From positions 7,706-71,705 of IMG/VR virus record IMGVR_UViG_3300020576_004720: a DNA stretch of 64,000 nt. The stretch is one strand, 5' to 3'. Both the position numbers and the translations under genes were made by a program. The DNA comes from a virus. The notes beneath the pieces were generated by a model, which saw only the letters and a program-made list of their open reading frames with translations, was not told the origin of the DNA and ran no database searches. Below, piece after piece: positions 1,176-48,248 of this stretch; the first letter of the stretch is position 1, and every line of letters starts with the position of its first letter.

Positions 1176-1190
1176 AACAATATATTTTTG

Positions 1191-1264
1191 TAGACCCCAT
1201 CGGAATCGAACCGATATATCCAACATTATGAGTGTTGTTCTCTAACCAATTGAGATAGAGGTCT
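1191..1264 (-). tRNA. tRNA-Met (anticodon CAT)
   Basis: Cloverleaf read by hand. Acceptor AGACCTC/GGGGTCT with one G-U pair, D-stem TCTC/GAGA, anticodon stem CAACA/TGTTG with loop CTCATAA, T-arm ATCGG-TTCGATT-CCGAT, discriminator A. Confidence 0.8.
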
Positions 1265-2494: not shown

Positions 2495-2866
2495 TTATTG
2501 AAGCATTTTTTCCAGTTCTTCAATGCTCTTTCCTGCAAGTTCTTCATTCTTTTTGTTCTGAATGAGTTCCAGGATCTTTTGGTTATGCTCTTTTGTAGCA
2601 ATTTTCTTCCTTTCTTCTTCTTTTTCTTCTTTTCTTGTCAGATAAACATCCTTCAAAATAGCAAACCTTAATTCATTTTCCTTGTCTGCAGTCTTTGTTG
2701 CATCTAAAAATTCCAAGTCAGAGTCATCTGTTTTCTTCAGAATGGTTCTTACTCTTCTGATAGAAGTTTCTAAATCCCTCATTGTCAAACCGAAAAGTTG
2801 TTCTGTAGACAATGATCCTTTGGGAGTTTCAAATCGCAGATTTTGTTGTAATGCTTCTTTGTACAT
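2495..2866 (-). CDS. coiled-coil hypothetical protein (123 aa, Lys/Glu-rich)
   Basis: ORF with a charged, heptad-like composition. Confidence 0.5.
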   Translation of the reverse strand: MYKEALQQNLRFETPKGSLSTEQLFGLTMRDLETSIRRVRTILKKTDDSDLEFLDATKTADKENELRFAILKDVYLTRKEEKEEERKKIATKEHNQKILELIQNKKNEELAGKSIEELEKMLQ

Positions 2867-2890
2867 ATGGTTTTTGTTTTTAAAAATAAG

Positions 2891-2969
2891 TTGAGATGGA
2901 TAGAATCGAACTACCGACCTTCAGCATGTCTAATAGGAGCTGACACTCTACCAACTGAGCTACATCTCA
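2891..2969 (-). tRNA. atypical tRNA-like gene (79 nt) with an expanded 13-nt anticodon region; identity unresolved
   Basis: Acceptor TGAGATG/CATCTCA, D-arm GCTC-AGTTGGTA-GAGT, T-arm GGTAG-TTCGATT-CTATC and discriminator A are canonical. The anticodon stem TCAGC/GCTGA encloses the 13 nt TCCTATTAGACAT instead of a 7-nt loop. Confidence 0.5.
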
Positions 2970-2981
2970 ACCTATTTTGAT

Positions 2982-36079: not shown

Positions 36080-36511
36080 ATGGCATACTATAAATATACG
36101 TGGGAAAAACTAGAAAATACTAGTTACCCTATAATAAAAATAAAATCAGTATTATTAGATTCTACTGAGAAAAATTTTGTTGACAAATATTTTCCTTTCG
36201 ATAGTTCAAAAAAAATAGGTAATGCTATTAATGATCTAAATGATTCAGATATAAGTGCTGTTACATATAGAACTGTATCGGATTCTAATAAAGTAATACA
36301 TGAACTTGTTGTTGATATAGTACCTTTAGTTACAACTACAATGCTAAAGTTAGGTTATAGTGATATTGTAGATGATTCGAATTTATATATAGTTGGAGAA
36401 CTTATTTCATATCCTCCTATAAATCATACTATATTTAGTACATGTTCACCAATAATAACAACAACGACTACTACAACTAGTACAACAACGACTACTACTG
36501 TAGCACCTTAA
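36080..36511 (+). CDS. hypothetical protein with a C-terminal poly-Thr tail
   Basis: ORF ending in TTTTTSTTTTTTVAP. Confidence 0.45.
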   Translation: MAYYKYTWEKLENTSYPIIKIKSVLLDSTEKNFVDKYFPFDSSKKIGNAINDLNDSDISAVTYRTVSDSNKVIHELVVDIVPLVTTTMLKLGYSDIVDDSNLYIVGELISYPPINHTIFSTCSPIITTTTTTTSTTTTTTVAP

Positions 36512-37590: not shown

Positions 37591-37618
37591 AATAAATTTG
37601 GAAAATATAAAAACATTT
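37581..37618 (+). promoter_or_regulatory. promoter (AAATAAATTTGG - 20 nt - TATATTTG), family copy 1
   Basis: Matches the Bacteroidetes sigma-A consensus: -33 TTTG, -7 TAnnTTTG. Confidence 0.55.
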
Positions 37619-37637
37619 CGTATATTTGTATTCCAAA

Positions 37638-37682
37638 ACAGATTACTATGGCTTGTGGCTGTGGAAAACCTAAACCCAAACC
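37638..37682 (+). CDS. tiny ORF (14 aa, MACGCGKPKPKPKK); candidate leader peptide
   Basis: First ATG after promoter copy 1. Translated by hand. Confidence 0.25.
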
Positions 37683-37686
37683 TAAA

Positions 37687-37764
37687 AAATAAAAATATGT
37701 GGTTTATATTTGGAATCCTTTTAGGATTTTTTATAGGTAAAAATTTTGATAAGATCAAAGACTT
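37687..37764 (+). CDS. tiny hydrophobic ORF (25 aa, MWFIFGILLGFFIGKNFDKIKDLIL)
   Basis: Second short ORF between promoter copy 1 and the terminator at 37886. Confidence 0.3.
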
Positions 37765-37885
37765 AATTTTATGAAAAATAACTTTACACATACATGGCAA
37801 CCCACAACCCAGTGTCCATTTGGCATCTGCGAGGGTCTATGTATATGTATTAAAAAGTAAGCTTTTATTTTTTCCGATTCATACA

Positions 37886-37915
37886 CAAACCCTCAATAAC
37901 ATGAGGGTTTTTTAT
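37886..37915 (+). terminator. rho-independent terminator
   Basis: CCCTCA-ATAACA-TGAGGG followed by TTTTTTATTTT. Confidence 0.65.
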
Positions 37916-37961
37916 TTTATGGCGATGTAGGGAAGTCAGGTTTTTCCCACTAGCTTTGGGA

Positions 37962-38003
37962 TAAAAATAAATTTGGAAGTTCGAAAACTTTTTACTATAT
38001 TAG
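37962..38003 (+). promoter_or_regulatory. promoter family copy 2 (TTTG - 20 nt - TATATTAG) with an embedded hairpin AAGTT-CGAAA-ACTT
   Basis: Same AAATAAATTTGG leader as copy 1. It ends 4 nt before the ATG of HNH-1, so the mRNA is probably leaderless. Confidence 0.5.
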
Positions 38004-38007
38004 TAGT

Positions 38008-38571
38008 ATGAAAGTAAGTTTAATATGTCCTGTTTGTAAATCTAAATTTGAAAAGGAAGAGAAATATATAAATTTTAGTATCAAAAAAGATTGGAAAATT
38101 TATTGTTCAAATGAATGTAAGCATATAGGAAAAGCAAAAGAATATAATTATAAATGTGCAAATTGTGGTAAAGATTTGATAGTTACTCCTAGTAGAATTA
38201 AAAGGTCTAAAACAGGAAATTTATATTGTAGTAAAAAGTGTTCGACTATAAAAAACAATACTCTTTTTAAAAAATGGGAAAATCATCCTCAATATAAAAC
38301 TGGTATAGGTAGTTATAGATGGATAAAGATAAAATCAATGAAGGAATTAAAATGTGAGGAATGTAATTTTGATAACCCTTTAGCTTTAGAAGTTCATCAT
38401 AAAGATAGAAATAGAAAAAATAATAATCTTGATAACTTACAACTACTTTGTTGTAATTGTCATACAATAAAGCATAAAACAGGTAGTGGGCTAATTGGTA
38501 AGCCGCCACATTTGGGATGTGGACATCATGCAGAATCGTCCTCTGTCTACCTGACACAAAAGATTGAATAA
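38008..38571 (+). CDS. HNH homing endonuclease (HNH-1), with N-terminal Cys-rich zinc fingers
   Basis: LEVHHKDRNRKNNNLDNLQLLCCNCHTIKH (HNH motif) and CPVCKSKF...C...C. Confidence 0.8.
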   Translation: MKVSLICPVCKSKFEKEEKYINFSIKKDWKIYCSNECKHIGKAKEYNYKCANCGKDLIVTPSRIKRSKTGNLYCSKKCSTIKNNTLFKKWENHPQYKTGIGSYRWIKIKSMKELKCEECNFDNPLALEVHHKDRNRKNNNLDNLQLLCCNCHTIKHKTGSGLIGKPPHLGCGHHAESSSVYLTQKIE

Positions 38572-38625
38572 TTTAAGCGACTAAGTTATAAAATAGATGG
38601 TTCGAATCCATTCATTGCCACATAG

Positions 38626-38700
38626 GTCCATATGGCTGAGAGGTCAAAAGCAACAATCTGCAAAATTGTAAAACCGTTGGTTCAAATCCAACTATGGACT
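38626..38700 (+). tRNA. tRNA-Cys (GCA)
   Basis: Acceptor GTCCATA/TATGGAC, anticodon stem ACAAT/ATTGT with loop CTGCAAA, T-arm GTTGG-TTCAAAT-CCAAC. Confidence 0.75.
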
Positions 38701-38706
38701 CTAAAT

Positions 38707-38780
38707 GCCTCCTATGCAGATATGGTGCTGCGTCTGCCTTGTAAGCAGAAATAGAGAGTTTTCGAGTAACTCAGGAGGAT
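38707..38780 (+). tRNA. tRNA-Thr (TGT)
   Basis: D-arm GCAG/CTGC, anticodon stem TCTGC/GCAGA with loop CTTGTAA, T-arm GAGTT-TTCGAGT-AACTC. Positions 1 and 72 are a G-A mismatch. Confidence 0.65.
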
Positions 38781-38786
38781 CTAAAA

Positions 38787-38860
38787 GGTAACTAAGCAAT
38801 TGTTGGTCAATGCATCTGTTTGAAGAACAGACTAACTCAGTTCGAACCTGAGAGTTACCA
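38787..38860 (+). tRNA. tRNA-Phe (GAA)
   Basis: Acceptor GGTAACT/AGTTACC, anticodon stem TCTGT/ACAGA with loop TTGAAGA, T-arm CTCAG-TTCGAAC-CTGAG. Confidence 0.8.
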
Positions 38861-38865
38861 CAGAT

Positions 38866-38936
38866 ACCTCGTTGGTGTAATGGTAGCACAAGAGCTTCCA
38901 AACCTCTTGGAACCTTTTCGATTAGGGTACGAGGTG
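38866..38936 (+). tRNA. tRNA-Trp (CCA)
   Basis: Acceptor ACCTCGT/ACGAGGT, anticodon loop TTCCAAA (one C-C mismatch at the base of the anticodon stem), T-arm ACCTT-TTCGATT-AGGGT. Confidence 0.65.
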
Positions 38937-38959
38937 CAGGATACTGGATGAAGAAAAAT

Positions 38960-39032
38960 TCCAATATGGGGTAATTGGTAACCCGACTGACTTTGATTCA
39001 GTAGATTCTAGGTTCGAACCCTAGTATTGGAT
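38960..39032 (+). tRNA. tRNA-Gln (TTG)
   Basis: Acceptor TCCAATA/TATTGGA, anticodon stem ACTGA/TCAGT with loop CTTTGAT, T-arm CTAGG-TTCGAAC-CCTAG. Confidence 0.8.
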
Positions 39033-39034
39033 CT

Positions 39035-39107
39035 GGTGGTTATAGCTTAATGGTAGAGCGGTACATTGTGGCTGTATTATGTGAGGGTTCGAGTCCCTTT
39101 AATCACC
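39035..39107 (+). tRNA. tRNA-His (GTG), with G-1
   Basis: Acceptor GTGGTTA/TAATCAC preceded by an extra G that pairs with C73. Anticodon loop TTGTGGC. T-arm GAGGG-TTCGAGT-CCCTT. Confidence 0.75.
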
Positions 39108-39114
39108 CTGTAAA

Positions 39115-39187
39115 CCACTTTTAGTTAAACTGGAAATAACCTTTGACTACGGATCAAAAATTATCTGTTCGAATCAGATAAAGTGGT
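39115..39187 (+). tRNA. tRNA-Arg (ACG)
   Basis: Acceptor CCACTTT/AAAGTGG, anticodon stem TTTGA/TCAAA with loop CTACGGA, T-arm ATCTG-TTCGAAT-CAGAT. Confidence 0.75.
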
Positions 39188-39390
39188 CAAAAATATATAT
39201 CTTTGTAGTATGAGAAATATCACACTTTATACTGGAGTTGGTGGTTATATAATGTTTCAAGAGTCATTAGAACAAATAACTCTTGGGACTAGAAGAGTAT
39301 ATATAGGCAAAAAGGTCCCTAGAATACTAAGAAAAGTTCATAAGAAAATAGAAAAAGCAGAAAACGGAAAATATTTTTTTAGAACAAAAA

Positions 39391-39428
39391 AATAAATTTG
39401 GATTTTTAAAAAATACATTGTATATTTG
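39391..39428 (+). promoter_or_regulatory. promoter family copy 3 (AAATAAATTTGG - 20 nt - TATATTTG)
   Basis: Exact consensus. Confidence 0.55.
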
Positions 39429-39457
39429 CACTAATTAAAAGTTATAGACATTCACAA

Positions 39458-39544
39458 ATGCAATCTTTAAATATCATAGCGATGGTGAAAGGTAATATTG
39501 AGGATAGAAACTCAATAGGGTTTGTGTTGTCTTTCTGTAAGTGA
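39458..39544 (+). CDS. candidate leader peptide (28 aa, MQSLNIIAMVKGNIEDRNSIGFVLSFCK) upstream of the Lys-Val-Arg-Asn-Met...Gly-Glu-Asp-Ile tRNA array
   Basis: Short ORF between promoter copy 3 and the terminator at 39567-39600. Codons AAA/AAG, GTG, AGA, AAT/AAC, ATG, GGG/GGT, GAG, GAT and ATC/ATT/ATA correspond to the downstream tRNAs. Confidence 0.35.
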   Translation: MQSLNIIAMVKGNIEDRNSIGFVLSFCK

Positions 39545-39566
39545 GAGTTAAGAAAATAAAATACAC

Positions 39567-39600
39567 AAGCCCTTCCCAAAAAGAAGGGCTTTTTTATTTC
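39567..39600 (+). terminator. rho-independent terminator / attenuator immediately 5' of tRNA-Lys
   Basis: AAGCCCTTC-CCAAAAA-GAAGGGCTT followed by TTTTTATTTC. tRNA-Lys starts at the next base. Confidence 0.65.
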
Positions 39601-39674
39601 TCCTCTTAACTCAGTTGGCTAGAGTAGTAAACTTTTAATTTACGAGTCGTGGGTTCGAGTCCCTCAGGGGAGAC
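39601..39674 (+). tRNA. tRNA-Lys (TTT)
   Basis: Acceptor CTCCTCT/AGGGGAG with a G-U pair, D-arm ACTC/GAGT, anticodon stem GTAAA/TTTAC with loop CTTTTAA, T-arm GTGGG-TTCGAGT-CCCTC with one U-U mismatch. Confidence 0.7.
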
Positions 39675-39679
39675 ATATA

Positions 39680-39752
39680 GAGGATTAACTCAGTTGGCAG
39701 AGTGCTTGTATTACAAACAAGAAGTCAGGATCTCGGAATTCCTATCCTCTAC
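39680..39752 (+). tRNA. tRNA-Val (TAC), non-canonical T-loop
   Basis: Acceptor AGAGGAT/ATCCTCT, anticodon stem CTTGT/ACAAG with loop ATTACAA. T-arm AGGAT-CTCGGAA-TTCCT lacks the usual TTC. Confidence 0.6.
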
Positions 39753-39757
39753 ACAAG

Positions 39758-39830
39758 TCCTTGTAACTCAACGGATAGAGTATTTGCCTTCTAAGCAAAA
39801 AGTTGTAAGTTCGATTCTTACCAAGGATAC
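39758..39830 (+). tRNA. tRNA-Arg (TCT)
   Basis: Acceptor GTCCTTG/CAAGGAT, anticodon stem TTTGC/GCAAA with loop CTTCTAA, T-arm GTAAG-TTCGATT-CTTAC. Confidence 0.75.
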
Positions 39831-39871
39831 AGGTGGGTTACCTTTCCCCGTGGAGTTAAAAAAGGAGATGT

Positions 39872-39945
39872 GGGAAGTTAGCTCATGTTGGTAGAGCAAA
39901 TGACTGTTAATCATTAGGTGAAGGGATCGTCACCCTTACTTCCCT
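39872..39945 (+). tRNA. tRNA-Asn (GTT), unusual T-loop ATCGTCA
   Basis: Acceptor GGGAAGT/ACTTCCC, D-arm GCTC/GAGC, anticodon stem AATGA/TCATT with loop CTGTTAA, T-stem AAGGG/CCCTT. Confidence 0.7.
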
Positions 39946-39950
39946 CATAA

Positions 39951-40022
39951 TGTGAGGTAATGCAGCGGTAGCAGAAAAGGCTCATACCCTTTTAGTCGGG
40001 AGTTCGAATCTCCCCCTCGCAA
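39951..40022 (+). tRNA. tRNA-Met (CAT)
   Basis: Acceptor TGTGAGG/CCTCGCA, anticodon stem AAAGG/CCTTT with loop CTCATAC, T-arm GGGAG-TTCGAAT-CTCCC. Confidence 0.75.
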
Positions 40023-40046
40023 CAGAAAAATTACTATCTTTGCAAT

Positions 40047-40511
40047 ATGGAAAAATATTTTCGGACACAAGATGGTAAAATAGTAAATATCATCGAACAT
40101 ACGCTAGATCAGATTGAAAAATTCAATCATCTAGAAATATCTATCGGAACAGATAGTCAAGACTGGGGACAAGATACCGTTTATGTAACTTGTATAGCTT
40201 ATAGATATGGAAGAAGAGGTGCTCATTTTATTTACTTAAAAGAAGTTGTATCAAGAATAAAAGATTTTAGTCAATTTACAAGATTATATGGAGAAGGATT
40301 AAGAACTCTTGAAATACATGATACTTTGACTCAAGATATCCCTATTGCTGTTAAAGCTTTGGAATTTGATTTTGCAGATGCAAAGAAAACTATAAGTTCT
40401 AAATTAGTTTCTGCGTTTAAAGGTTATGCAAACTCAACTTTTAAAACTGGAGAAATGATAGCATGTAAGGCTGCAGATCACGTCATAAGACACCCTTCTG
40501 TATATAAATAA
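40047..40511 (+). CDS. hypothetical protein (154 aa) embedded in the tRNA island; weak RNase H-like/DUF458-like GTDSQ motif
   Basis: ORF. ISIGTDSQDWGQDTVYVTCIAY is the only suggestive motif. Confidence 0.45.
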   Translation: MEKYFRTQDGKIVNIIEHTLDQIEKFNHLEISIGTDSQDWGQDTVYVTCIAYRYGRRGAHFIYLKEVVSRIKDFSQFTRLYGEGLRTLEIHDTLTQDIPIAVKALEFDFADAKKTISSKLVSAFKGYANSTFKTGEMIACKAADHVIRHPSVYK

Positions 40512-40634
40512 GTGTTACTGATGTACACAGTGTCGTAGTCCCTCTTAAGCCTCTGATTCAAGCTCAAATGAAGAGTGTAATCGTAAAGTACACATAGTTA
40601 ATAGGTTCTATCGGGCGTACAAAAACCTAAACCT

Positions 40635-40708
40635 GCAGTAGTAGTTCAATTGGTAGAATGCCGTCCTTCCAAGTCGGAGGTTTGCAAGTTCGAGTCTTGT
40701 CTACTGCA
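40635..40708 (+). tRNA. tRNA-Gly (TCC)
   Basis: Acceptor GCAGTAG/CTACTGC, D-arm GTTC-AATTGGTA-GAAT, anticodon loop CTTCCAA, T-arm GCAAG-TTCGAGT-CTTGT. Confidence 0.7.
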
Positions 40709-40711
40709 CAT

Positions 40712-40785
40712 GCCATGTTTGACTAGCGGTCTAGGTCAACACTCTTTCACGGTGTTATTCATGGGTTCGAATCCCATACATGGTA
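40712..40785 (+). tRNA. tRNA-Glu (TTC)
   Basis: Acceptor GCCATGT/ACATGGT with G1-U72, anticodon stem ACACT/GGTGT with loop CTTTCAC, T-arm ATGGG-TTCGAAT-CCCAT. Confidence 0.75.
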
Positions 40786-40789
40786 CTAA

Positions 40790-40864
40790 CGCCTATTAGG
40801 GGAGTTGGTCGTCCCTGTTCCTCTGTCTAAGGAAAGATCCTCGGTTCGAATCCGTGATAGGCGA
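40790..40864 (+). tRNA. tRNA-Asp (GTC)
   Basis: Acceptor CGCCTAT/ATAGGCG, D-stem GGGG/CCCT, anticodon stem TTCCT/AGGAA with loop CTGTCTA, T-arm CTCGG-TTCGAAT-CCGTG. Confidence 0.7.
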
Positions 40865-40867
40865 CAT

Positions 40868-40944
40868 GCTGATGTATCCTCTCTGGCTTATATCCAGTTG
40901 AAAAGGTAGTTGGTTACACATTAGTTCGAATCTAATCATCAGTA
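40868..40944 (+). tRNA. irregular tRNA-like gene (77 nt), possible tRNA-Ile(TAT)-like; D-arm missing or displaced
   Basis: Acceptor GCTGATG/CATCAGT and T-arm ATTAG-TTCGAAT-CTAAT are clear. The only anticodon-like hairpin is CTGG-CTTATAT-CCAG, which gives TAT. A D-loop-like GTAGTTGGTTAC sits where the variable region should be. Confidence 0.4.
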
Positions 40945-40947
40945 CAA

Positions 40948-40984
40948 AATAAATTTGATAAATTCGAACTTTTATCTTATATTG
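40948..40984 (+). promoter_or_regulatory. promoter family copy 4 (TTTG - 20 nt - TATATTG) with an embedded TTCGAAC hairpin; drives HNH-2
   Basis: AAATAAATTTGATAAATTCGAACTTTTATCTTATATTG is homologous to the HNH-1 promoter region. Confidence 0.5.
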
Positions 40985-41004
40985 TATATATAAAGTATAC
41001 AATA

Positions 41005-41550
41005 ATGGTTAAAAAGACAAAAATTTTGGAACTTTTTCATAAAGGATTTAGTTCTGCTGAAATATCTAAACAGTTAAGATGCTCTAAATCAACAGTAAGT
41101 TATCATTGTTCAAAATTTATTAACAAAGTTGATAAATATACACCTGAATTATTAAAAATATATCAGGATGCTTATGATCAAGGATTATCTTTTAAAGGTG
41201 TTGCTGATAAATTTAAAGTATCAAGACAATTATTAGGTAAAAAATTAAAAGCAAGAAAACTTACAAAACTTCAAATTAAACAAAAAGCTGACAAAAGAAA
41301 AAAAGGCTATAGGTTAAAAGTAAAAGAACAATGTGTAGAATATAAAGGAGGGAAATGTTGTAAATGTGGATATAATAAATGTCTTGCTGCTTTAGAATTT
41401 CATCATATTGATCCTAATAAAAAAGATTATACTATAAGTGGTGGAACTAAAAGTTTTCAAAACTTAAAGTCTGAATTAGATAAATGTATTTTAGTGTGTA
41501 AAAATTGTCATGCAGAGATACATTTTCAAATAATTAATAATGACTTGTAG
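41005..41550 (+). CDS. HNH homing endonuclease (HNH-2) with an N-terminal helix-turn-helix
   Basis: LEFHHIDPNKKDY...CKNCHAEIH (HNH motif) and AEISKQLRCSKSTVSYH (HTH-like). Confidence 0.8.
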   Translation: MVKKTKILELFHKGFSSAEISKQLRCSKSTVSYHCSKFINKVDKYTPELLKIYQDAYDQGLSFKGVADKFKVSRQLLGKKLKARKLTKLQIKQKADKRKKGYRLKVKEQCVEYKGGKCCKCGYNKCLAALEFHHIDPNKKDYTISGGTKSFQNLKSELDKCILVCKNCHAEIHFQIINNDL

Positions 41551-41613
41551 CTCAAATGGTAGAGCGTTACACTGATAATGTAAAGGTAGTGAGATCGTTA
41601 CTCACCAAGTCAA
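41541..41613 (+). tRNA. tRNA-Ile (GAT), overlapping the last 10 nt of HNH-2
   Basis: Acceptor TGACTTG/CAAGTCA, D-arm GCTC-AAATGGTA-GAGC, anticodon stem TTACA/TGTAA with loop CTGATAA, T-arm GTGAG-ATCGTTA-CTCAC. Confidence 0.75.
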
Positions 41614-41770
41614 CTAAGGGGGTGCATGTTCCAAGGCTGGCGAAGTAGTTTTGCAAACTATTTGAGAAGATTTCGATTATCTTCATCTCCACAAAATAAA
41701 TTTTGGAAGAAAAAAGAAAAGTTGTATTTTTGCCTTGGTTTTTATAGGCATCATTGTCACGGAATAGAAA

Positions 41771-41805
41771 GTCCTTCTAGAAATAGAAGGATTTTTTATT
41801 TTGAC
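41771..41805 (+). terminator. rho-independent terminator
   Basis: AGTCCTTCTA-GAAA-TAGAAGGATT followed by TTTTTATTTT. Confidence 0.65.
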
Positions 41806-42178: not shown

Positions 42179-43978
42179 ATGGCAATATATTACGTAGATT
42201 CCAGTTACACTGGTTCAACATCTAATGGTGGTATAAATACACCTTGGAAGTCTCTATCAAATGTAAATTCAAATATGAGTTTACTTCAACCTGGAGACCA
42301 AGTCTTATTAAAAAGAGGACAGAGTTATTCAGGAACTCTAAATATAACAAGATCTGGTAATTCATCAGCAAGAATTATTTTTGGTGCATATGGAACAGGG
42401 GCACAACCTAAATTATTAGGTACAGGTGCATCTATTAATGTTCTTATATCTATGTATAATAGATCATATATTACACTGCAAGACTGGACTATAGTAGATG
42501 AGTCTATATCTGCAGTAGATAGAACAATACAGGCAAAAATTCAAAGAGCTATTGTTCCAGATTCATCTACTAATATTACTATTACAAGATGTAATTTTGA
42601 TAGAACTGGTTGTGCGTTGTATACTACTGGTGATAATACAACTTTTACATATTCTACAGTACAGAATATGAGGATGATTAAAAACACCAAAGATGGTCCG
42701 CCTCCCGGAAATGATGATGACTATGGTGCTAATGGTGTAATTATATCTTCTTCTAATAATATTATTACAAATAATATATTTGAAGGGTGTTGGGCAGATT
42801 CATATGATTATGAATATGATGGTGGAGCAGTAGATATTTACGCTGATGTAGATTGTAGTAATAACCTTATAGCATACAATAGTTTTAATGATTGCAATGG
42901 TGTTATTGAAATTGGTGGTTCAGGTGGACGTACTGTAACCGGAACTGTATTAGCATACAATAAATGTACAAATAATGGGTCTTTTATGTATGTGAGTAAT
43001 TCAGGCACTTTTGCTACAAATGTAATTAATACAAGTATACTTAATAATGTTATTGTCGAAACTCAACCATTTAGAGTATCAAGTAATGCAATGATAGGAT
43101 ATAAGAGCACTCCTACTACAGCAGCTACTTTAACTGTAAAGAATAATATATTTCAATTATATGGTACTGTAGATGTCTATAGAGCACAGTGGAATAATAC
43201 TACTCTTATTCATGAAAATAATGTATACAAATTAAATACATCAGGAACAGGTTCATTATTAAATATTACAGCAAACCCTAGTGAGATTGTAACAAGTGCT
43301 AACTTTTGGACCTCAACTTCAGGAAATGCAAAAGATTGGAACTTCTCTCCTTTAGTTGGCAGTGTATTAATAAATGCAGGAACAAATGTGGGGTACTCTG
43401 TAGATTTTGCAGGTGTTGCTGTTAGTAATCCTCCTGAAATAGGTATTTTAGAATATGTTGCTGGTACAACAACTACTACAAGTTCTACTTCAAGTACAAG
43501 TAGTACAAGTACAACTTCTACTTCAAGTACAAGTACAACTACAACTACAACTTTAGTTCCTACTACAACAACTACTACTTCAAGTACATCAACAACATCA
43601 ACAAGTAGTACAACTACCACTAGTTCAACAACTACAACTACAAGTTCTAGTACAACTACGACTACAACTATAAATGAACCTATTCAAGGAACTATTTCTT
43701 TATCAGGAACATTACCAAGAAGAAGAGTTTCAAATATTTGTTGGAATATAAATACAAATGTACCTGTAGTAAAATATATTGAAAGAATGACAAATAATGT
43801 ATTTACAACTATTTACACTATTCCTGGTGGTTATAGTACTACAGCATCTAACTGTAGGGATATCAAATTAAGTTTAACCATTAATACTTTTAGAATTAAA
43901 GTAGTAGATAGTTATGGAAATATAAAATACTCTCAGACTATAAGTTATAATAATCAGGGATTTTTAATAGATGTTTAA
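42179..43978 (+). CDS. tailspike / polysaccharide-depolymerase-like protein (right-handed parallel beta-helix + Ser/Thr-rich linker + C-terminal domain)
   Basis: Repeated NxxIxxNxF-type pectate-lyase-fold repeats (ITITRCNFDRTGCALYTTGDN..., IISSSNNIITNNIFEGCW...). About 70-aa linker made only of Thr/Ser. Confidence 0.55.
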   Translation: MAIYYVDSSYTGSTSNGGINTPWKSLSNVNSNMSLLQPGDQVLLKRGQSYSGTLNITRSGNSSARIIFGAYGTGAQPKLLGTGASINVLISMYNRSYITLQDWTIVDESISAVDRTIQAKIQRAIVPDSSTNITITRCNFDRTGCALYTTGDNTTFTYSTVQNMRMIKNTKDGPPPGNDDDYGANGVIISSSNNIITNNIFEGCWADSYDYEYDGGAVDIYADVDCSNNLIAYNSFNDCNGVIEIGGSGGRTVTGTVLAYNKCTNNGSFMYVSNSGTFATNVINTSILNNVIVETQPFRVSSNAMIGYKSTPTTAATLTVKNNIFQLYGTVDVYRAQWNNTTLIHENNVYKLNTSGTGSLLNITANPSEIVTSANFWTSTSGNAKDWNFSPLVGSVLINAGTNVGYSVDFAGVAVSNPPEIGILEYVAGTTTTTSSTSSTSSTSTTSTSSTSTTTTTTLVPTTTTTTSSTSTTSTSSTTTTSSTTTTTSSSTTTTTTINEPIQGTISLSGTLPRRRVSNICWNINTNVPVVKYIERMTNNVFTTIYTIPGGYSTTASNCRDIKLSLTINTFRIKVVDSYGNIKYSQTISYNNQGFLIDV

Positions 43979-44016
43979 AATAAATTTGGTTTTTGTAAAT
44001 TATTATACTATATTTG
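43979..44016 (+). promoter_or_regulatory. promoter family copy 5 (AAATAAATTTGG - 20 nt - TATATTTG)
   Basis: Exact consensus. The ATG of the leader ORF lies 5 nt downstream. Confidence 0.55.
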
Positions 44017-44020
44017 CATC

Positions 44021-44092
44021 ATGAAAAATAACAAACTATATAGTTCCTTATCGTATCTCTTACAAAGTAAGAGCAGGGATTATATTGTTTAA
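44021..44092 (+). CDS. candidate leader peptide (23 aa, MKNNKLYSSLSYLLQSKSRDYIV) of the Leu-Leu-Ser-Ser-Tyr tRNA operon
   Basis: 12 of 23 codons are Leu/Ser/Tyr (CTA, TTA x2, CTC, TAT x3, AGT x2, AGC, TCC, TCG). This matches the five downstream tRNAs. A terminator follows 25 nt after the stop. Confidence 0.4.
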   Translation: MKNNKLYSSLSYLLQSKSRDYIV

Positions 44093-44117
44093 AAATAATT
44101 ATATTGTTTACAATAAA

Positions 44118-44149
44118 ACCCTGCCAATTTTGGTGGGGTTTTTCTTTTT
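44118..44149 (+). terminator. rho-independent terminator / attenuator abutting tRNA-Leu
   Basis: ACCCTGCCAA-TT-TTGGTGGGGT (10-bp stem with two G-U pairs) followed by TTTTTCTTTTT. tRNA-Leu starts at the next base. Confidence 0.65.
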
Positions 44150-44235
44150 GGGGATGTGGTGGAATTGATAGACACCCTAGACTTAGGATCTAGTGTTAAT
44201 AAACTGGCGTGAGAGTTTGAATCTCTCCATCCCTA
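44150..44235 (+). tRNA. tRNA-Leu (TAG), type II with long variable arm
   Basis: 86 nt. Acceptor GGGGATG/CATCCCT, anticodon stem CTAGA/TCTAG with loop CTTAGGA, T-arm GAGAG-TTTGAAT-CTCTC. Confidence 0.7.
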
Positions 44236-44240
44236 CAAAT

Positions 44241-44314
44241 GGTCTAGTAAGCTAACTGGGAAAGCTATAAAACTTAAAATTTTATGTTTGTGAGTTCGAA
44301 TCTCACCTAGACTA
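44241..44314 (+). tRNA. tRNA with anticodon TAA (Leu UUA) but short type I architecture (74 nt)
   Basis: Acceptor GGTCTAG/CTAGACT, anticodon stem TAAAA/TTTTA with loop CTTAAAA, T-arm GTGAG-TTCGAAT-CTCAC. Variable region is only 5 nt. Confidence 0.6.
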
Positions 44315-44318
44315 CAAT

Positions 44319-44405
44319 GGTAAGGTGCTCAAGTGGTCATAAGAGCCTCGCTTTGAAAGCCTGTGTGATGTAAAAGTCCCGTGGGTTCGAATCCCACCCT
44401 TGCCT
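44319..44405 (+). tRNA. tRNA-Ser (TGA), type II
   Basis: 87 nt. Acceptor GGTAAGG/CCTTGCC, anticodon loop TTTGAAA (imperfect stem), 17-nt variable arm, T-arm GTGGG-TTCGAAT-CCCAC. Confidence 0.6.
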
Positions 44406-44410
44406 CAAAT

Positions 44411-44494
44411 GGAGAGTTGCAGGAATTGGTAAACTGTTCTGTTTGCTAAACAGAAGATGTAAAAGTCGCAAGAGTTCGAATCTTGTACTCTCCT
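44411..44494 (+). tRNA. tRNA-Ser (GCT), type II
   Basis: 84 nt. Acceptor GGAGAGT/ACTCTCC, anticodon stem TCTGT/ACAGA with loop TTGCTAA. Its 15-nt variable arm resembles that of the neighbouring Ser tRNA. Confidence 0.65.
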
Positions 44495-44504
44495 CATAAT
44501 CAAT

Positions 44505-44675: not shown

Positions 44676-45308
44676 ATGATAGATTCAGATTTAAAAAGAT
44701 GTGGAGTTTATAAAATTACAAACTTAAAAAATAATAAGGTATATATCGGTAGTACTACAAAAACATTATATAGTAGAAAAAGGTCCCATTTTTTAAAATT
44801 AAAAAATAATATTCATTTCAATACACATCTTCAGTTGTCATTTAATAAATATGGCGAGAATTTCTTTACATTTGAAATATTGGCAATATGTAAAGAAGAA
44901 CATACAGTAATATTAGAAAATTTCTTTATTAAATTATACTCTTCGCATTTAAAAGATAAAGGTTATAATATGGCTATTCCATTAGAATTACCAGTTCCAA
45001 ATATTTCAAATAAAGGTAAAAAATTTTCTGAAGATCATAAAGAGAAAATATCATATTCATTAAAAAGAAATTGCTATTGGAAAAATAAAAAACAGCCTCA
45101 ATCTATGATCTCTAAAAGATCTGAAAAAAATAAAAAACTTATTCAACAAATATGTAAAAGTACTGGTAAAATTTTAAATACCTGGAGTTTTGAAGAAGCC
45201 AAGAAGAATGGTTATTATCCTTCTGCTGCTAGAAATTATATACAGGGCAAGAGAAAGTCTTATAAAGGATTTGATTGGAAAATAATAAAAAAATTATATG
45301 ATAAGTAA
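44676..45308 (+). CDS. GIY-YIG homing endonuclease
   Basis: GVYKITNLKNNKVYIGSTT (GIY-...-YIG) near the N-terminus. Confidence 0.75.
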   Translation: MIDSDLKRCGVYKITNLKNNKVYIGSTTKTLYSRKRSHFLKLKNNIHFNTHLQLSFNKYGENFFTFEILAICKEEHTVILENFFIKLYSSHLKDKGYNMAIPLELPVPNISNKGKKFSEDHKEKISYSLKRNCYWKNKKQPQSMISKRSEKNKKLIQQICKSTGKILNTWSFEEAKKNGYYPSAARNYIQGKRKSYKGFDWKIIKKLYDK

Positions 45309-46716: not shown

Positions 46717-47406
46717 ATGAGTACAAAAAGAAAACATATTGATACCTTTAGACAAATGTTAAAGGAACGAAATATAGATACTAATTACACCAATCAGTAT
46801 TTATATAATGTACTTTTCGACCAAGCAAAATGGTTGATAAAAAGAGAAATAAATAATGGAAATGTTCATAAAAATCCAAAGTTTTTACAAACTTTATCTT
46901 GTTGGGATATAGTTCCATCTTCAACTATTGAAGAGTGTTGTCCAGTAACAGTTAATTGTAAAATATATAGGACTAAGCATCAATTGCCTGAAATGTGGCA
47001 AACTGCAAATGGTCCAGCAATATTCTCAGTTACCTCTGTAGACAACACAACAAACTTTTTTATAACAAACTATAGAACATGGCAGTCCAAAAGACAAGAT
47101 CCTTATCATAAATTACAACCTACAAAGTATGTTTTTTATGAAAATGGTTATTTATGGTTTCCAGAATTTAATCCTCACAAGGTAAATATAAGAGTATTTG
47201 CAGTAGATGACGTTAGATTAATGGATATTAAATGTGAGGATTGTGATACTAATGAGAATGAGTGTATACAATTTCTTGAAACTGAGTTTTTAATACCAGA
47301 TTGGGTTGAAGCAGAAATGTATGCAAAAGCACTTCAGTTACTTGTTCCATTAAAACAGATACCTGAAGACCAACAAATTGATAAAAATGCAAACCGTAAG
47401 CTATAA
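46717..47406 (+). CDS. hypothetical protein (229 aa)
   Basis: ORF. Confidence 0.5.
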   Translation: MSTKRKHIDTFRQMLKERNIDTNYTNQYLYNVLFDQAKWLIKREINNGNVHKNPKFLQTLSCWDIVPSSTIEECCPVTVNCKIYRTKHQLPEMWQTANGPAIFSVTSVDNTTNFFITNYRTWQSKRQDPYHKLQPTKYVFYENGYLWFPEFNPHKVNIRVFAVDDVRLMDIKCEDCDTNENECIQFLETEFLIPDWVEAEMYAKALQLLVPLKQIPEDQQIDKNANRKL

Positions 47407-48248
47407 TGGTAAATAATAAAACAATAGATCATAAACCTATTCAGGAGCTTATAGCCATTGTTAAAAATGACTTTAAGAAATTTGATCTTGAAGGATTAAT
47501 TGATGATGGAAACCTCATCAAATCAGTAATGTATTGTAATGATAAACTTGGTTTAAATATTAGAGAGATAAGAGAAATAGCAATTCCTGTAAATGAGTAT
47601 AAAGCTAAATTACCTCTTGATTTTGAGAAGATGTTTTATGTATGTGCGTTAGAAGCTACAAATACACAAAATGTAACACTTACAAATCCTTTTGATAATA
47701 ATGTAGACCAAGATATTATATATGAAGCATCTTTAGATAGAGAATCTCTTGGATGTGTAGATAACTATAGGGTCCAAATTAAAAGAGAATCTAAACATGT
47801 TGTATATCAATATGGTAATTGGGTTCAACTTGAGGTTGATCCAAGTACTAGTTACTGTCATATAGACTGTCCAAATAAAACAAAGAAAGGTAGGTATAAA
47901 GTAGAGATTGATGGTGAATATATACATACTCCTTTTAGGTCTGGTACTTTATATCTTGTATATATAGGTATGATGAAGGATGAGAATGGTAATATTACAT
48001 TTCCTTTTCATCCATTAATTACACCATATTACGAATGGACTTTGAAAGAAAGTATAGTTAGTACTGCTTTATTTAATAGTGACTCTCCTAATCTTGGTGA
48101 GTTATGGAAATTAGCAAATAGACAAAGACAACTTGCTTGGTTGGATGCATATAATTTTACGACTGAAAAGTCTTATAATGAAACACTCCAAAGAGAAAAG
48201 AAAAAACAATTAGGTTGGTATCATCAATGGTTTAGATATTTTCAATAA
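47406..48248 (+). CDS. hypothetical protein (280 aa)
   Basis: ORF. ATGA-coupled to the upstream gene. Confidence 0.5.
   Translation: MVNNKTIDHKPIQELIAIVKNDFKKFDLEGLIDDGNLIKSVMYCNDKLGLNIREIREIAIPVNEYKAKLPLDFEKMFYVCALEATNTQNVTLTNPFDNNVDQDIIYEASLDRESLGCVDNYRVQIKRESKHVVYQYGNWVQLEVDPSTSYCHIDCPNKTKKGRYKVEIDGEYIHTPFRSGTLYLVYIGMMKDENGNITFPFHPLITPYYEWTLKESIVSTALFNSDSPNLGELWKLANRQRQLAWLDAYNFTTEKSYNETLQREKKKQLGWYHQWFRYFQ

Follow-up and report, generated by a model that had tools for sequence, protein, structure and literature searches.

The tRNA island and its genes

The window, a 64-kb stretch of DNA, belongs to a contig of at least 122 kb from a crAss-like phage, and its positions 38008-41613 correspond to the main tRNA island, which is absent altogether in relative L023. 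The 17 tRNA genes called by hand in the initial annotation are supported on the plus strand by ARAGORN and Rfam RF00005, and 17/17 reach the Rfam cut-off of 29 bits, tRNA-Thr and the TAT-like gene being marginal. The features downstream of the first HNH gene are as follows (bits for tRNAs are Rfam scores).

38626..39188, +, sub-array 1a: Cys, Thr, Phe, Trp, Gln, His, Arg(ACG)
38626-38701, +, tRNA-Cys, 63.6 bits
38707-38781, +, tRNA-Thr, 30.8 bits (threshold 29), match only in a single-gene search
38787-38861, +, tRNA-Phe, 46.8 bits
38866-38937, +, tRNA-Trp, 45.9 bits
38960-39033, +, tRNA-Gln, 66.7 bits
39036-39108, +, tRNA-His, 61.9 bits, G-1 encoded at 39035
39115-39188, +, tRNA-Arg(ACG), 54.5 bits
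39210..39395, +, 61-aa ORF, predicted as a gene in every related contig
39391..39591, +, island promoter (AATAAATTTG...TATATTTG), leader and terminator-like hairpin
39600..40023, +, sub-array 1b: Lys, Val(TAC), Arg(TCT), Asn, Met
39600-39674, +, tRNA-Lys, 58.9 bits
39679-39751, +, tRNA-Val(TAC), Rfam only, 46 bits, odd T-loop
39757-39830, +, tRNA-Arg(TCT), 70 bits
39872-39946, +, tRNA-Asn, 53.7 bits
39951-40023, +, tRNA-Met, 59.5 bits
40047..40511, +, 154-aa ORF, RNaseH_like (Pfam PF04308)
40635..40865, +, sub-array 1c, first part: Gly, Glu, Asp
40635-40709, +, tRNA-Gly, 63 bits
40712-40786, +, tRNA-Glu, 54.6 bits
40790-40865, +, tRNA-Asp, 47 bits
40868-40944, +, TAT-like tRNA gene, 30.6 bits with alignment
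40948..41004, +, HNH-2 promoter: AATAAATTTG, TTTG at 40954-40957, TTCGAA at 40963-40968
41005..41550, +, HNH-2 ORF, 181 aa, Pfam GerE/HTH and PF01844 (22.8 bits versus 21.4), phrog_2255
41541-41614, +, tRNA-Ile(GAT), 62.2 bits, T-loop ATCGTTA

Counting over the whole window gives 24 tRNAs that are firm, plus the TAT-like gene and a single split pseudogene. The TAT-like gene has a good acceptor, anticodon arm (CTTATAT loop) and T-arm; in the Rfam alignment its D-arm is missing, with 4 nt in place, and the variable region carries an 18-nt insert. Judging from sequence and position, it is an aberrant tRNA-Ile(UAU)-like gene, the positional orthologue of the canonical Ile(TAT) gene in L030 and L031. 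The 61-aa ORF had no match in Pfam or PHROG, and the RNaseH_like ORF is kept within the tRNA islands of L013, L025, L030 and L031.

A tRNA-Pro gene split by a cassette with HNH-1 and a second tRNA-Pro

At the upstream edge of the island, a resident tRNA-Pro(UGG) gene, designated Pro(A), is interrupted by an insertion that carries the first HNH gene and a complete tRNA-Pro(UGG), designated Pro(B):

37887..37910, +, terminator-like hairpin and T-run directly 5' of Pro(A), found by scan
37921..37961, +, orphan 5' half of Pro(A), ARAGORN split call
37966..38003, +, cassette (HNH-1) promoter: AATAAATTTG, -33 TTTG at 37972-37975, -7-like TATATTAG at 37996-38003
38008..38571, +, HNH-1 ORF, 187 aa, Pfam PF01844 (26.0 bits versus a cut-off of 21.4)
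38480..38555, +, Pro(B), complete and cassette-borne, ARAGORN and Rfam (45.5 bits)
38556..38595, +, 40-nt spacer, last part of the insertion, 100% identical in L018
38596..38620, +, orphan 3' fragment of Pro(A): T-arm GATGG-TTCGAAT-CCATT, acceptor CATTGCC, discriminator A

The 5' half of Pro(A) comprises the acceptor GGCGATG, the D-arm GGGA/TCCC, the anticodon stem CTAGC and the loop TTTGGGA, and terminates at tRNA nt 38; its acceptor strand (37921-37927) pairs 7/7 with that of the 3' fragment, with one G-U, and ARAGORN with long introns allowed (-io) reported 37921-38621 as one split tRNA-Pro. Around 9-10 nt were lost, corresponding to the 3' anticodon-stem strand and the variable loop, and a reconstruction borrowing these 9-10 nt (GCTAG+AAGA(G)) from L024 restored a perfect cloverleaf. 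The 3' fragment had already been noticed as an orphan T-arm/acceptor piece directly following HNH-1; it is indeed present, but starts 24 nt past the stop codon, and its 5' partner, upstream of HNH-1 and outside the interval initially considered, had been overlooked.

The insertion (37962-38595), immediately 3' of the anticodon loop, is a 634-bp cassette with its own promoter, which is Bacteroidota-type, HNH-1 and Pro(B); the HNH-1 ORF is joined at its end to the 5' end of Pro(B). Pro(B) (C1:G72, A73, T-loop ATCGTCC) is an 18th tRNA gene, also missed previously, lying wholly inside the 3' end of this ORF. The A and B sequences are very different, yet they have the same TTTGGGA anticodon loop. 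Intron_gpI was matched neither in the window (at E<=5) nor at the places where eight related loci carry their HNH genes; with no ribozyme, the Pro(A) gene is therefore dead and its halves are flanking remnants, tRNA-Pro function being supplied by Pro(B). The earlier proposal that endonuclease genes had inserted next to, or into, tRNA genes consequently gains in strength, with HNH-1 and a spare tRNA-Pro sitting within a split tRNA-Pro.

Both predicted HNH genes pass the PF01844 threshold. HNH-1 combines two zinc-ribbon-like CxxC...CSxxC modules with the HNH domain, and the Cys4/His/Asn columns are invariant across its homologues, which stop 4-9 aa past the motif CCNCHTIxH. The final 30 aa of the ORF are a read-through of Pro(B), and in a structure model this tail has pLDDT values <50 and the domains fold confidently. 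From the alignment and the model, the nuclease looks intact.

Promoters of the AATAAATTTG type occur in five copies in the window, all of them within 37.6-44.0 kb, and the one preceding sub-array 1b is followed by a terminator-like hairpin (39567-39591) directly 5' of tRNA-Lys. The homologous promoters with a TTCGAA motif initially ascribed to the two HNH genes are both present, but the promoter type is island-wide and only the TTCGAA spacer is HNH-specific. This motif (37980-37985 in the cassette) is kept upstream of HNH-1 homologues in other phages, TTTGGAAGTTCGA(A/C)A being conserved at this location in L030, L031, L231 and L232; nevertheless, because it lies between the -33 and -7 boxes, it is an untranscribed DNA palindrome rather than an RNA hairpin.

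Empty site, lateral transfer and linkage to tRNA genes

Comparison with HNH-free relatives, as had been advised, identified an empty site: L024 has an uninterrupted tRNA-Pro at the position of HNH-1 and no HNH gene, and its neighbouring 329-aa protein is 74% identical to that of the window. This intact tRNA-Pro lies directly 3' of a matching terminator hairpin and 4 nt before tRNA-Cys, and has the same A-CTAGC-TTTGGGA anticodon arm as Pro(A). L024 is the sole empty-site relative and is diverged, and its tRNA-Pro matches Pro(A) in the anticodon arm and T-loop but nowhere else. No intact A-type tRNA-Pro allele turned up when IMG/VR and JGI metagenomes were scanned for exact patterns.

The whole split unit (37915-38624) is identical in 708/710 positions (99.7%) in L018, where the flanking genes are 74-75% identical to those of the window, the 330 nt upstream are 78.9% identical, and the downstream neighbour is tRNA-Thr instead of tRNA-Cys. 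These levels of nucleotide identity show that the split unit was laterally transferred recently. The two differences map to the anticodon stem of Pro(A), 8-9 nt from the junction. Likewise, L105 and L107 share a 675-nt block with 99.3% identity and both flanks unalignable; its right boundary is within the T-arm of tRNA-His, so that the tRNA in L107 is chimeric, and its left boundary is outside any recognisable tRNA half.

In the eight lineages of the HNH-1 subfamily examined (window, L018, L030, L031, L033, L231, L232 and L235), the ORF end was always associated with tRNA-Pro(UGG), ending 0-20 nt inside or abutting it, and reading right through it in the window and L018. The conserved C-terminal ENVV* of L031 and L231 is encoded by tRNA nt 1-16, and these end residues are common to many other HNH-1 homologues. 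Additionally, an orphan 5' half of a tRNA-Pro, independent and stopping at the anticodon, is present in L031.

A wider set of 160 full-length homologues, all more distant (30-42% identity), was retrieved from metagenome contigs and from GTDB genomes of CPR, Omnitrophota and Planctomycetales. Of these, 107/160 adjoin tRNA-His(GTG) and 39/160 have no adjacent tRNA. Sequences resembling a tRNA-His 5' half precede 43/97 unique ORFs, being orphan in 32 of those 43, and most stop at the anticodon, at a distance of about 49-57 nt from the ATG. The three-piece layout, with an orphan 3' fragment too, was found at four loci (L076, L097, L110 and L119), and the 3' fragment is absent in most family members.

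Proposed homing into tRNA genes and alternative explanations

We assign a probability of about 0.7 to the whole of our best reading, namely that the tRNA island was colonised by free-standing HNH homing-endonuclease genes and that the HNH-1 cassette is a homing element of this type, targeting tRNA genes and bringing a replacement tRNA. In co-infecting relatives, HNH-1 would cut or nick tRNA-Pro genes that lack HNH, close to the anticodon arm, and the break would be repaired using the cassette-bearing genome as source, with the tRNA-derived flanks serving as short, context-independent homology arms; the recipient would gain the nuclease gene together with a tRNA-Pro that is intact and presumably resists cleavage. 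We infer here the DNase activity of HNH-1, its target and cleavage site, the self-immunity of Pro(B) and the repair pathway. A precedent is SegB of phage T4, a homing endonuclease that cleaves tRNA genes and is itself encoded in a cluster of them (PMC2330249), and the association of SegB with tRNAs is widespread (PMC13096335). Other phages and many uncultured bacteria show the same layout, which looks like a way for a selfish nuclease gene to enter tRNA genes harmlessly without an intron. Several observations count against homing: the proposed arms are short (41 and 25 nt), the left boundary shared by L105 and L107 is not tRNA-derived in any recognisable way, and conversion should be complete so near the junction, where L018 differs by 2 nt. 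The same holds for the 39 homologues with no neighbouring tRNA, for the divergence of L024 as the single empty-site relative and for the failure of the exact-pattern scans to retrieve an intact A-type allele. Moreover, if recognition centres on the anticodon loop, the immunity of Pro(B) must rest on other differences, none of which was identified.

It is rather unlikely that the HNH genes are domesticated instead of selfish, promoting tRNA-gene recombination or amplification as SegB does in phage T6, so that the phage can replace or multiply tRNAs hit by host anticodon nucleases, with the split tRNA as a by-product. SegB drives tRNA-Tyr amplification and thereby escape from Septu (PMC13096335). 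Two further points speak for this explanation: the island is mosaic among close relatives (entire tRNA blocks have been exchanged between L013 and the window, with HNH genes at the boundaries), and a GIY-YIG gene follows island 2 in the window. However, tandem amplification of the cassette was seen in none of about 12 contigs of the lineage, an anti-defence role is not evident for the family members beside tRNA-His in many bacterial genomes, and domestication is in any case compatible with homing.

The Pro(A) remnants could instead be kept for a function, pairing over 650 nt into a minihelix for RNase P/RNase Z that would release the HNH-1/Pro(B) transcript in one piece or regulate it, which we regard as improbable. 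An acceptor stem plus T-arm is the minimal RNase P substrate, exactly the pieces retained; their acceptor complementarity is intact, those of L018 are identical save two changes in the dispensable anticodon stem, and the three-piece layout recurs at the four loci mentioned above. Yet recent transfer accounts for the L018 identity, so that this identity is no evidence of selection on the remnants; the cassette promoter is downstream of the Pro(A) 5' half and a terminator-like hairpin just upstream of it, so the pieces may not share one transcript; and most family members lack the 3' fragment.

Also improbable is a one-off tandem duplication or illegitimate recombination of tRNA-Pro with a chance HNH insertion, followed by vertical inheritance and no homing. 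tRNA arrays are prone to recombination, A and B could in principle stem from neighbouring tRNA-Pro genes, and the constant distance of about 49-50 nt that separates the orphan half from the ATG in the His-type elements speaks for one ancestral junction; nonetheless, A and B diverge widely in sequence, and vertical descent fits poorly with the near-identical unit in L018 amid diverged flanks and a different neighbour, the element shared by L105 and L107 in unrelated contexts, the presence/absence polymorphism exemplified by L024, and the different orphan half of L031 at the matching position.

A group I intron, or another self-splicing one, that would leave Pro(A) functional after splicing can practically be dismissed. 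The insertion point does coincide with the position of group I introns in bacterial tRNA genes (the 3' edge of the anticodon loop), ARAGORN formally fits an intron to the region, and HNH genes exist within group I introns of tRNA-Asn in Patescibacteria and tRNA-Leu(UAA) in Bacteroidota (PMC13011429). Against this, Intron_gpI was not matched at E<=5 in the window, only ~70 nt of the 634-nt insert are outside the ORF and Pro(B), the ARAGORN fit requires a mismatched stem and a 12-nt variable loop, exon ligation would yield no tRNA because the 3' anticodon-stem strand and variable loop are absent, and the insert itself holds a second complete tRNA-Pro.

HNH-2, with an N-terminal helix-turn-helix and an HNH domain, is a second free-standing HNH gene, distantly related to HNH-1. 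It has inserted between the Ile(UAU)-like gene and Ile(GAT), and in L030 and L031, where HNH-2 is missing from this spot, Ile(TAT) directly neighbours Ile(GAT). Its reported 10-nt overlap with tRNA-Ile is exact (41541-41550), the TAG stop being nt 8-10 of the tRNA, and its homologues in phages Muenster and WPEC5 likewise flank tRNAs.

The split tRNA-Pro gene and its HNH cassette

A complete tRNA-Pro(UGG) gene, designated Pro(B) and absent from the initial annotation of tRNA island 1, was called by ARAGORN and Rfam (45.5 bits) wholly inside the 3′ end of the ORF for the HNH endonuclease HNH-1. When long introns were allowed, ARAGORN also linked a sequence upstream of this ORF to an orphan T-arm/acceptor fragment, as a single tRNA-Pro designated Pro(A); the fragment, already noticed by hand after HNH-1, is indeed present. 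The locus contains the following elements:

37921–37961: 5′ half of the resident tRNA-Pro(UGG), Pro(A)
37962–38595: 634-bp insert in Pro(A), comprising a promoter, HNH-1, Pro(B) and a 40-nt spacer
38008–38571: HNH-1 ORF
38480–38555: complete tRNA-Pro(UGG), Pro(B)
38596–38620: orphan T-arm/acceptor fragment, the 3′ part of Pro(A)

The 5′ half of Pro(A) reads GGCGATG-TA-GGGA...TCCC-A-CTAGC-TTTGGGA, and the acceptor strands (37921–37927 and 38613–38619) are paired at 7/7 positions, with one G-U. The anticodon-stem 3′ strand and the variable loop, 9–10 nt, are absent, and a perfect cloverleaf is obtained only once GCTAGAAGA(G) (GCTAG+AAGA(G)) from the related contig L024 is added. The matching halves and this reconstruction indicate that Pro(A) is split right after the anticodon loop by the 634-bp insert. 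The initial annotation had favored the insertion of endonuclease genes next to, or into, tRNA genes, and the latter is what we found: HNH-1 and the complete Pro(B) lie inside the split Pro(A), a nuclease gene and a tRNA that occupy a fixed insertion point within a resident tRNA of matching isotype.

A group I intron in Pro(A), for which we looked for a detectable catalytic core (P1–P9) and for exon joining that restores a complete tRNA, was rejected because there is no Rfam match and too little non-coding RNA: Intron_gpI was found neither in the window at E ≤ 5 nor at the HNH sites of related loci, and only ~70 nt of the insert lie outside the ORF and the tRNA. Likewise, the joined Pro(A) exons do not rebuild a tRNA, since 9–10 nt are gone. 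The HNH-1 ORF is also out of frame with any host protein, and with no intron match either, it is neither intron- nor intein-embedded. From the lack of an intron match, the scarcity of non-coding RNA and the failure of exon joining we conclude that Pro(A) is a two-piece pseudogene and Pro(B) the working gene. The acceptor end is G1:C72 in Pro(A) and C1:G72 with A73 in Pro(B) and in all the other tRNA-Pro genes examined (from L024 and the related loci L030, L031, and L033); C1:G72 with A73 is the usual bacterial proline identity set. Overall, we estimate a probability of roughly 0.85–0.9 that the cassette sits in a now-dead tRNA-Pro gene and provides the working copy.

Separately, in the IMG/VR phages L065–L068 (around 2640–3690) ARAGORN makes one tRNA-Leu(UAA) out of an orphan 5′ and an orphan 3′ part separated by ~964 nt; the span between them holds a distant HNH homolog and no complete tRNA-Leu. 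The two cases tested, L065 and L067, gave no Rfam group I intron match, and this tRNA-Leu(UAA) may contain a divergent intron or be another split tRNA.

The window derives from a putative crAss-like phage, to judge from Pfam matches in neighboring genes: exact-protein look-ups showed that neighboring genes on matching metagenomic contigs carry CrAss_Ring_1/2, the precomputed match to CrAss_Ring_2 (strong) falling, in identical contigs, on the product that corresponds to window ORF 46717–47406 and that to CrAss_Ring_1 (weak) on the counterpart of window ORF 47406–48248. A flanking 329-aa protein was found on a 122-kb JGI contig. Among deposited phages there was no close relative, with only the 3′ half of HNH-2 (the second HNH gene of the island) giving matches, at 70–75%; a search of IMG/VR with the RNaseH-like ORF of the island retrieved no relatives, and one with the 329-aa neighbor retrieved only L023, where the flanking genes are present and the tRNA island is wholly absent. 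The empty site is found in L024, whose 329-aa protein is 74% identical: an uninterrupted tRNA-Pro(UGG), without any HNH gene, immediately follows the same terminator hairpin and precedes tRNA-Cys by 4 nt, and its anticodon arm (A-CTAGC-TTTGGGA-GCTAG-AAGAG) agrees with the 5′ half of Pro(A) and gives the missing bases. Gapped exact-pattern scans of IMG/VR and JGI metagenomes found no intact A-type allele.

Contig L018 is identical to the window at 708/710 positions over 37915–38624, which span the split tRNA and its contents, compared with 74–75% for the genes on its flanks and 78.9% for the upstream 330 nt; past 38624 it cannot be aligned, because its next gene is tRNA-Thr instead of tRNA-Cys. 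Both limits of the identical block fall a few bases at most from the ends of Pro(A), and both differences are in the dead Pro(A) anticodon stem. This pattern indicates a recent transfer of the unit.

HNH-1 proteins, their tRNA partners and a proposed homing model

HNH assignments required a PF01844 score above the curated cut-off (21.4 bits) plus the conserved His/Asn/His and Cys4 zinc ligands; both genes called by hand as HNH endonucleases pass this Pfam model, HNH-1 with 26.0 and HNH-2 with 22.8 bits, and they share phrog_2255. Residues C116, C119, H130, H131, N143, C148, C151, H152, and H156 are invariant in 15 HNH-1 homologs, and the AlphaFold model of HNH-1 contains a beta-beta-alpha element at 127–158, the HNH unit and two N-terminal zinc-ribbon-like modules being confident. 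Structure comparisons (PDB sequence search and Foldseek) returned only generic HNH/zinc-finger matches, with E > 0.2 by fold. The homologs stop 4–9 residues past CCNCHTIxH and the window protein is 30 residues longer; this tail (pLDDT 31–39) is Pro(B) read in frame, the nuclease gene, its active-site signature intact, being fused here to a complete tRNA. As translation of HNH-1 needs an mRNA extending into or through the tRNA, processing by RNase P would leave a stop-less message, which, as a speculation, may limit nuclease expression.

For the crAss subfamily, the search gave 35 HNH-1 homologs, and we inspected seven further genomic contexts. In L030, L031, L033, L231, L232/L233, and L235 (45–70% identity) the ORF ends 0–20 nt into, or abuts, a tRNA-Pro(UGG). 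The C-terminal ENVV* of L031 and L231 is encoded by tRNA nt 1–16 (CGAGAATGTGGTGTAA), and many homologs have the same final residues, indicating that the overlap of ORF and tRNA is old. Additionally, L031 has a different orphan tRNA-Pro 5′ half, which ends at the anticodon, directly before the promoter. More distant IMG/VR phage homologs often have an adjacent tRNA-Leu or tRNA-Met, and a search upstream of these for sequences similar to the downstream tRNA detected no orphan halves.

Distant homologs (30–42% identity) were collected from JGI metagenomes and GTDB genomes (Patescibacteria/CPR, Omnitrophota, Planctomycetales, Dependentiae, and others), and 107 of the 160 full-length ones have a tRNA-His(GTG) from −45 to +60 nt downstream. 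A profile of tRNA-His nt 1–38 identified a 5′-half-like sequence upstream of 43/97 unique ORFs, orphan in 32 of the 43; most of these orphan halves stop at the anticodon, and the ~49–57 nt between them and the ATG contain a sigma-70-like promoter. At four loci the complete tRNA-His is also followed by an orphan 3′ fragment, which is the architecture of the window. The metagenome contigs L105 (130–804) and L107 (31–705) have in common a 675-nt HNH/tRNA-His block that is 99.3% identical, ends inside the tRNA-His T-arm and has unalignable flanks on both sides. The tRNA-His of L107 is visibly a chimera: its acceptor stem is mismatched at two positions at the base and its T-stem at one, giving the appearance of a fresh recombination scar.

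Homing-gene tests revealed presence/absence polymorphism for HNH-1 (L024) and HNH-2 (L030 and L031), and elements far more alike than their flanks in the window/L018 and L105/L107 pairs, with discontinuities of identity at tRNA borders. As a mechanism, the predicted nuclease HNH-1 would break nuclease-free tRNA genes near the anticodon arm, and repair, with the tRNA-derived flanks serving as arms of homology, would copy the cassette. When the incoming and resident 3′ halves are alike, crossover would take place inside the tRNA, as in L107, and the orphan 5′ half alone would remain; when they are too unlike, as A and B, the resident 3′ fragment would be left after a slight resection, which would account for the 9–10 nt missing from Pro(A). 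We lean, with some reserve, toward this homing mechanism.

The chances are about even that HNH-1 represents an undescribed class of intron-less, isotype-specific homing elements that invade tRNA genes with a replacement tRNA and portable tRNA-derived arms. Members would enter just 3′ of the anticodon and offset the damage without splicing, by means of a complete or 5′-portion replacement tRNA fused to the end of the ORF; their tRNA-derived flanks would let them home into any genome that has a comparable tRNA, whatever its context, and the net effect would be a replacement of tRNA alleles driven across phages and bacteria. The isotypes would be tRNA-Pro(UGG) in crAss-like phages and tRNA-His(GUG) in CPR/Patescibacteria, Omnitrophota, and Planctomycetales; elsewhere, Leu, Met, Ser, and Ala are possible.

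Comparison with known elements

Integrase-mediated islands and prophages take tRNA genes as integration sites and bring along a copy of the tRNA end that they displace. They resemble the HNH-1 cassette in having a tRNA gene as target, in preserving viability through duplicate tRNA sequence and in the partial tRNA repeat at the far end; however, they are kilobases long and rely on a tyrosine integrase that recombines site-specifically in the 3′ part of the tRNA, whereas the cassette is ~0.6 kb long, has no recombinase and has its junction after the anticodon loop. Also unlike these islands, HNH-1-type elements duplicate either the 5′ half of the tRNA or all of it. The free-standing HNH endonuclease gene mobE reportedly splits nrdA of Aeh1 ("genes in pieces"), and is likewise an intron-less HNH homing gene that splits a conserved gene while the phage survives, but there the two protein halves reassemble, whereas here the split tRNA is non-functional and the replacement is in the cassette. 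The tRNA region of phage T5 contains the HNH endonucleases F-TflI, F-TflII, and F-TflIV, similarly interspersed among phage tRNA genes; we know of no split target tRNA with a replacement copy described for them.

SegB of T4/T6 is a free-standing GIY-YIG homing endonuclease in a tRNA gene cluster (PMC2330249; PMC13096335); that of T4 cuts tRNA genes at a T-arm motif (PMC2330249), and the association of SegB with tRNAs is widespread and statistically strong across phages (PMC13096335). As is seen or proposed for HNH-1, it is a selfish nuclease gene residing in a phage tRNA cluster, has tRNA gene DNA as its target, is missing from otherwise homologous clusters of relatives and drives co-conversion of neighboring tRNA genes. 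Nevertheless, it has a GIY-YIG fold instead of HNH plus zinc-ribbon modules, and it is intergenic, neither inside nor overlapping a tRNA and with no split-tRNA remnants, whereas the HNH-1 cassette splits a tRNA; moreover, SegB has no reported isotype partnership, unlike the HNH-1 family, with Pro in the crAss subfamily and His in the bacterial one. HNH genes also occur in group I introns of tRNA-Asn(GUU) from Patescibacteria and tRNA-Leu(UAA) from Bacteroidota (PMC13011429). These share with the HNH-1 family the insertion in the region of the anticodon loop and the presence in Patescibacteria and Bacteroidota-associated genomes; there, however, the tRNA is restored by RNA splicing, whereas here part of it is deleted and its function is made good in the DNA itself, by a spare complete tRNA of matching isotype.

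Phage tRNA clusters with homing endonucleases and tRNA group I introns with HNH genes are already known; in the limited collection of literature searched, we found no description of an intron-less HNH layout with a split tRNA plus a replacement tRNA and isotype-specific phage and bacterial subfamilies. Homing endonucleases are thought to persist in essential genes via self-splicing introns or inteins, or else between genes. The locus suggests a third solution for RNA genes, which is to break the target and bring a replacement. If confirmed, this would bear on why HNH genes so often abut tRNA genes in phage arrays, on the shuffling of tRNA alleles and blocks between phages, relevant to the evasion of tRNA-targeting defenses, and on the HNH gene plus half-tRNA found beside tRNA-His in many CPR, Omnitrophota, and Planctomycetales genomes, as well as on whether the HNH-1 family yields small nucleases naturally specific for tRNA genes.

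Other genes and signals of the tRNA island

We considered as tRNA genes those with an RF00005 covariance score at or above the gathering threshold of 29 bits and a cloverleaf. ARAGORN called 23 tRNAs in the window and the Rfam tRNA model, at gathering threshold, 21; the default runs of each lacked some of the tRNA genes. All 17 genes called by hand in the island reached 29 bits in Rfam, using permissive filters or searching the gene singly, and together with Pro(B) they scored 30.6–70 bits, with marginal values for tRNA-Thr (38707–38781; 30.8 bits) and for the TAT-like gene (40868–40944; 30.6 bits). Val(TAC) (39679–39751) was called by Rfam only, and the G-1 of tRNA-His is encoded, at 39035. 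The 10-nt overlap noted between HNH-2 (41005–41550) and tRNA-Ile(GAT) was also upheld (41541–41550), the HNH-2 stop codon TAG being tRNA nt 8–10. With its tRNAs, HNH genes, overlap, and orphan fragment all confirmed, the hand annotation was accurate; as a caution, tRNAs within ORF ends and split tRNA pseudogenes escape hand calling. Toward the left of the window, tRNA-Met (1190–1264, minus strand) overlaps by 37 nt the annotated start of a 221-aa ORF (561–1226, minus strand), and tRNA-Arg(CCT) (2890–2969, minus strand) follows the stop codon of a 702-aa ORF by 12 nt; no Pfam match was obtained for either ORF.

The TAT-like gene (plus strand), a tRNA-Ile(UAU)-like sequence, has good acceptor, anticodon, and T arms; in the Rfam alignment it shows 4 nt in place of the D-arm and an 18-nt insert in the variable region, where a D-arm-like GTAGTTGGTTAC is located. 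The same sequence is present in the close variant L013, and it is syntenic with the canonical Ile(TAT) of L030 and L031. A possible degenerate tRNA-Ala(UGC) (41622–41692, plus strand), with G3:U70, good anticodon and T arms and a poor D-arm, was called by ARAGORN at relaxed threshold only and not by Rfam; its site matches that of a canonical tRNA-Ala directly 3′ of Ile(GAT) in L025 and L026. Three of 23 tRNAs have an ATCGTNN T-loop, with A54/U58 swapped with respect to TTCGANN: Pro(B), Asn (39872–39946), and Ile(GAT) (41541–41614), all on the plus strand, two of which, Pro(B) and Ile(GAT), are those fused to HNH genes; L026 has this loop in its tRNA-Ile(GAT) and L030 in its tRNA-Asp. A role in protection from a nuclease reading the T-arm was discarded, because the HNH-linked tRNA-Pro genes of other phages (L030, L031, and L232) have canonical T-loops and the pattern is therefore not general.

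HNH-2 contains an N-terminal helix-turn-helix besides the HNH domain (Pfam) and separates the Ile(UAU)-like gene from Ile(GAT), two genes that adjoin in L030 and L031, without HNH-2; its DNA-level relatives in jumbo phages likewise flank tRNAs. Neither HNH-1 nor HNH-2 matched GIY-YIG in Pfam. A GIY-YIG homing-endonuclease-like ORF (44676–45308, plus strand; 210 aa; PF01541, 3.1e-10; weak SegE_GIY-YIG; phrog_314) lies ~180 nt past tRNA island 2 (Leu, Leu, Ser, Ser; 44150–44495), as a third tRNA-side nuclease gene. The close variants L013, L015, and L019 have two additional HNH genes, each ending in or at a tRNA (Met and Gly(GCC)). A swapped block between Arg(TCT) and Asp (L013, 11860–14000; also in L015, L019, and L020) has other Asn, Met, Gly, and Glu alleles and an additional Gly(GCC), and its HNH genes code for 183 aa (PF13391), ending in tRNA-Met nt 8–10, and 128 aa, ending 1 nt into tRNA-Gly(GCC). 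At the same island position of a 70% relative (L025, 12463–13361), a 279-aa ORF without a Pfam match extends over the 5′ end of a 91-nt tRNA-Pro(UGG); its motifs (..PDFYL..LDPK..) suggest a PD-(D/E)XK nuclease, and a different type of nuclease may occupy the same niche there.

The ORF intervening between the sub-arrays (40047–40511, plus strand) is PF04308 RNaseH_like (Pfam); this ORF of ~154 aa, without a PHROG family, is within the tRNA islands of all the crAss-like relatives examined (L013, L025, L030, and L031), usually just before tRNA-Gly, and may act in tRNA or RNA metabolism.

Window promoters are of the Bacteroidota type (TTTG...TAnnTTTG), and all five copies of AATAAATTTG in the window are at 37.6–44.0 kb. 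The two HNH genes had been credited with homologous promoters containing TTCGAA; the TTCGAA spacer palindrome is specific to them, but the promoter itself is island-wide. The motif TTTGGAAGTTCGA(A/C)A is conserved upstream of the crAss-subfamily HNH-1 homologs. We discarded as unsupported speculation that the promoter is a collapsed tRNA-Pro remnant, with TTTGGAAGTTCGA as the anticodon loop joined to the T-loop, an idea for which the 11-nt repeat ATTTGGAAGTT of L031 was cited. Four units on the plus strand (37591–37910, 39391–39591, 43979–44142, and 41695–41800) are built alike, with a promoter AAAATAAATTTGG-N19-TATATTTG, a non-conserved leader of 100–300 nt and, last, a terminator-like hairpin followed by a T-run; in three, the end lies 8–11 nt 5′ of the tRNA that opens a sub-array (Pro(A), Lys, and Leu), and the hairpin may be an attenuator, a small RNA or a site of processing. 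The ORFs flanking the island (36080–36511 and 42179–43978, plus strand), the 599-aa one without a Pfam match, contain long Thr/Ser runs (TTTTTTSTTTTTT...) and probably code for tail-fiber-like proteins with low-complexity linkers.
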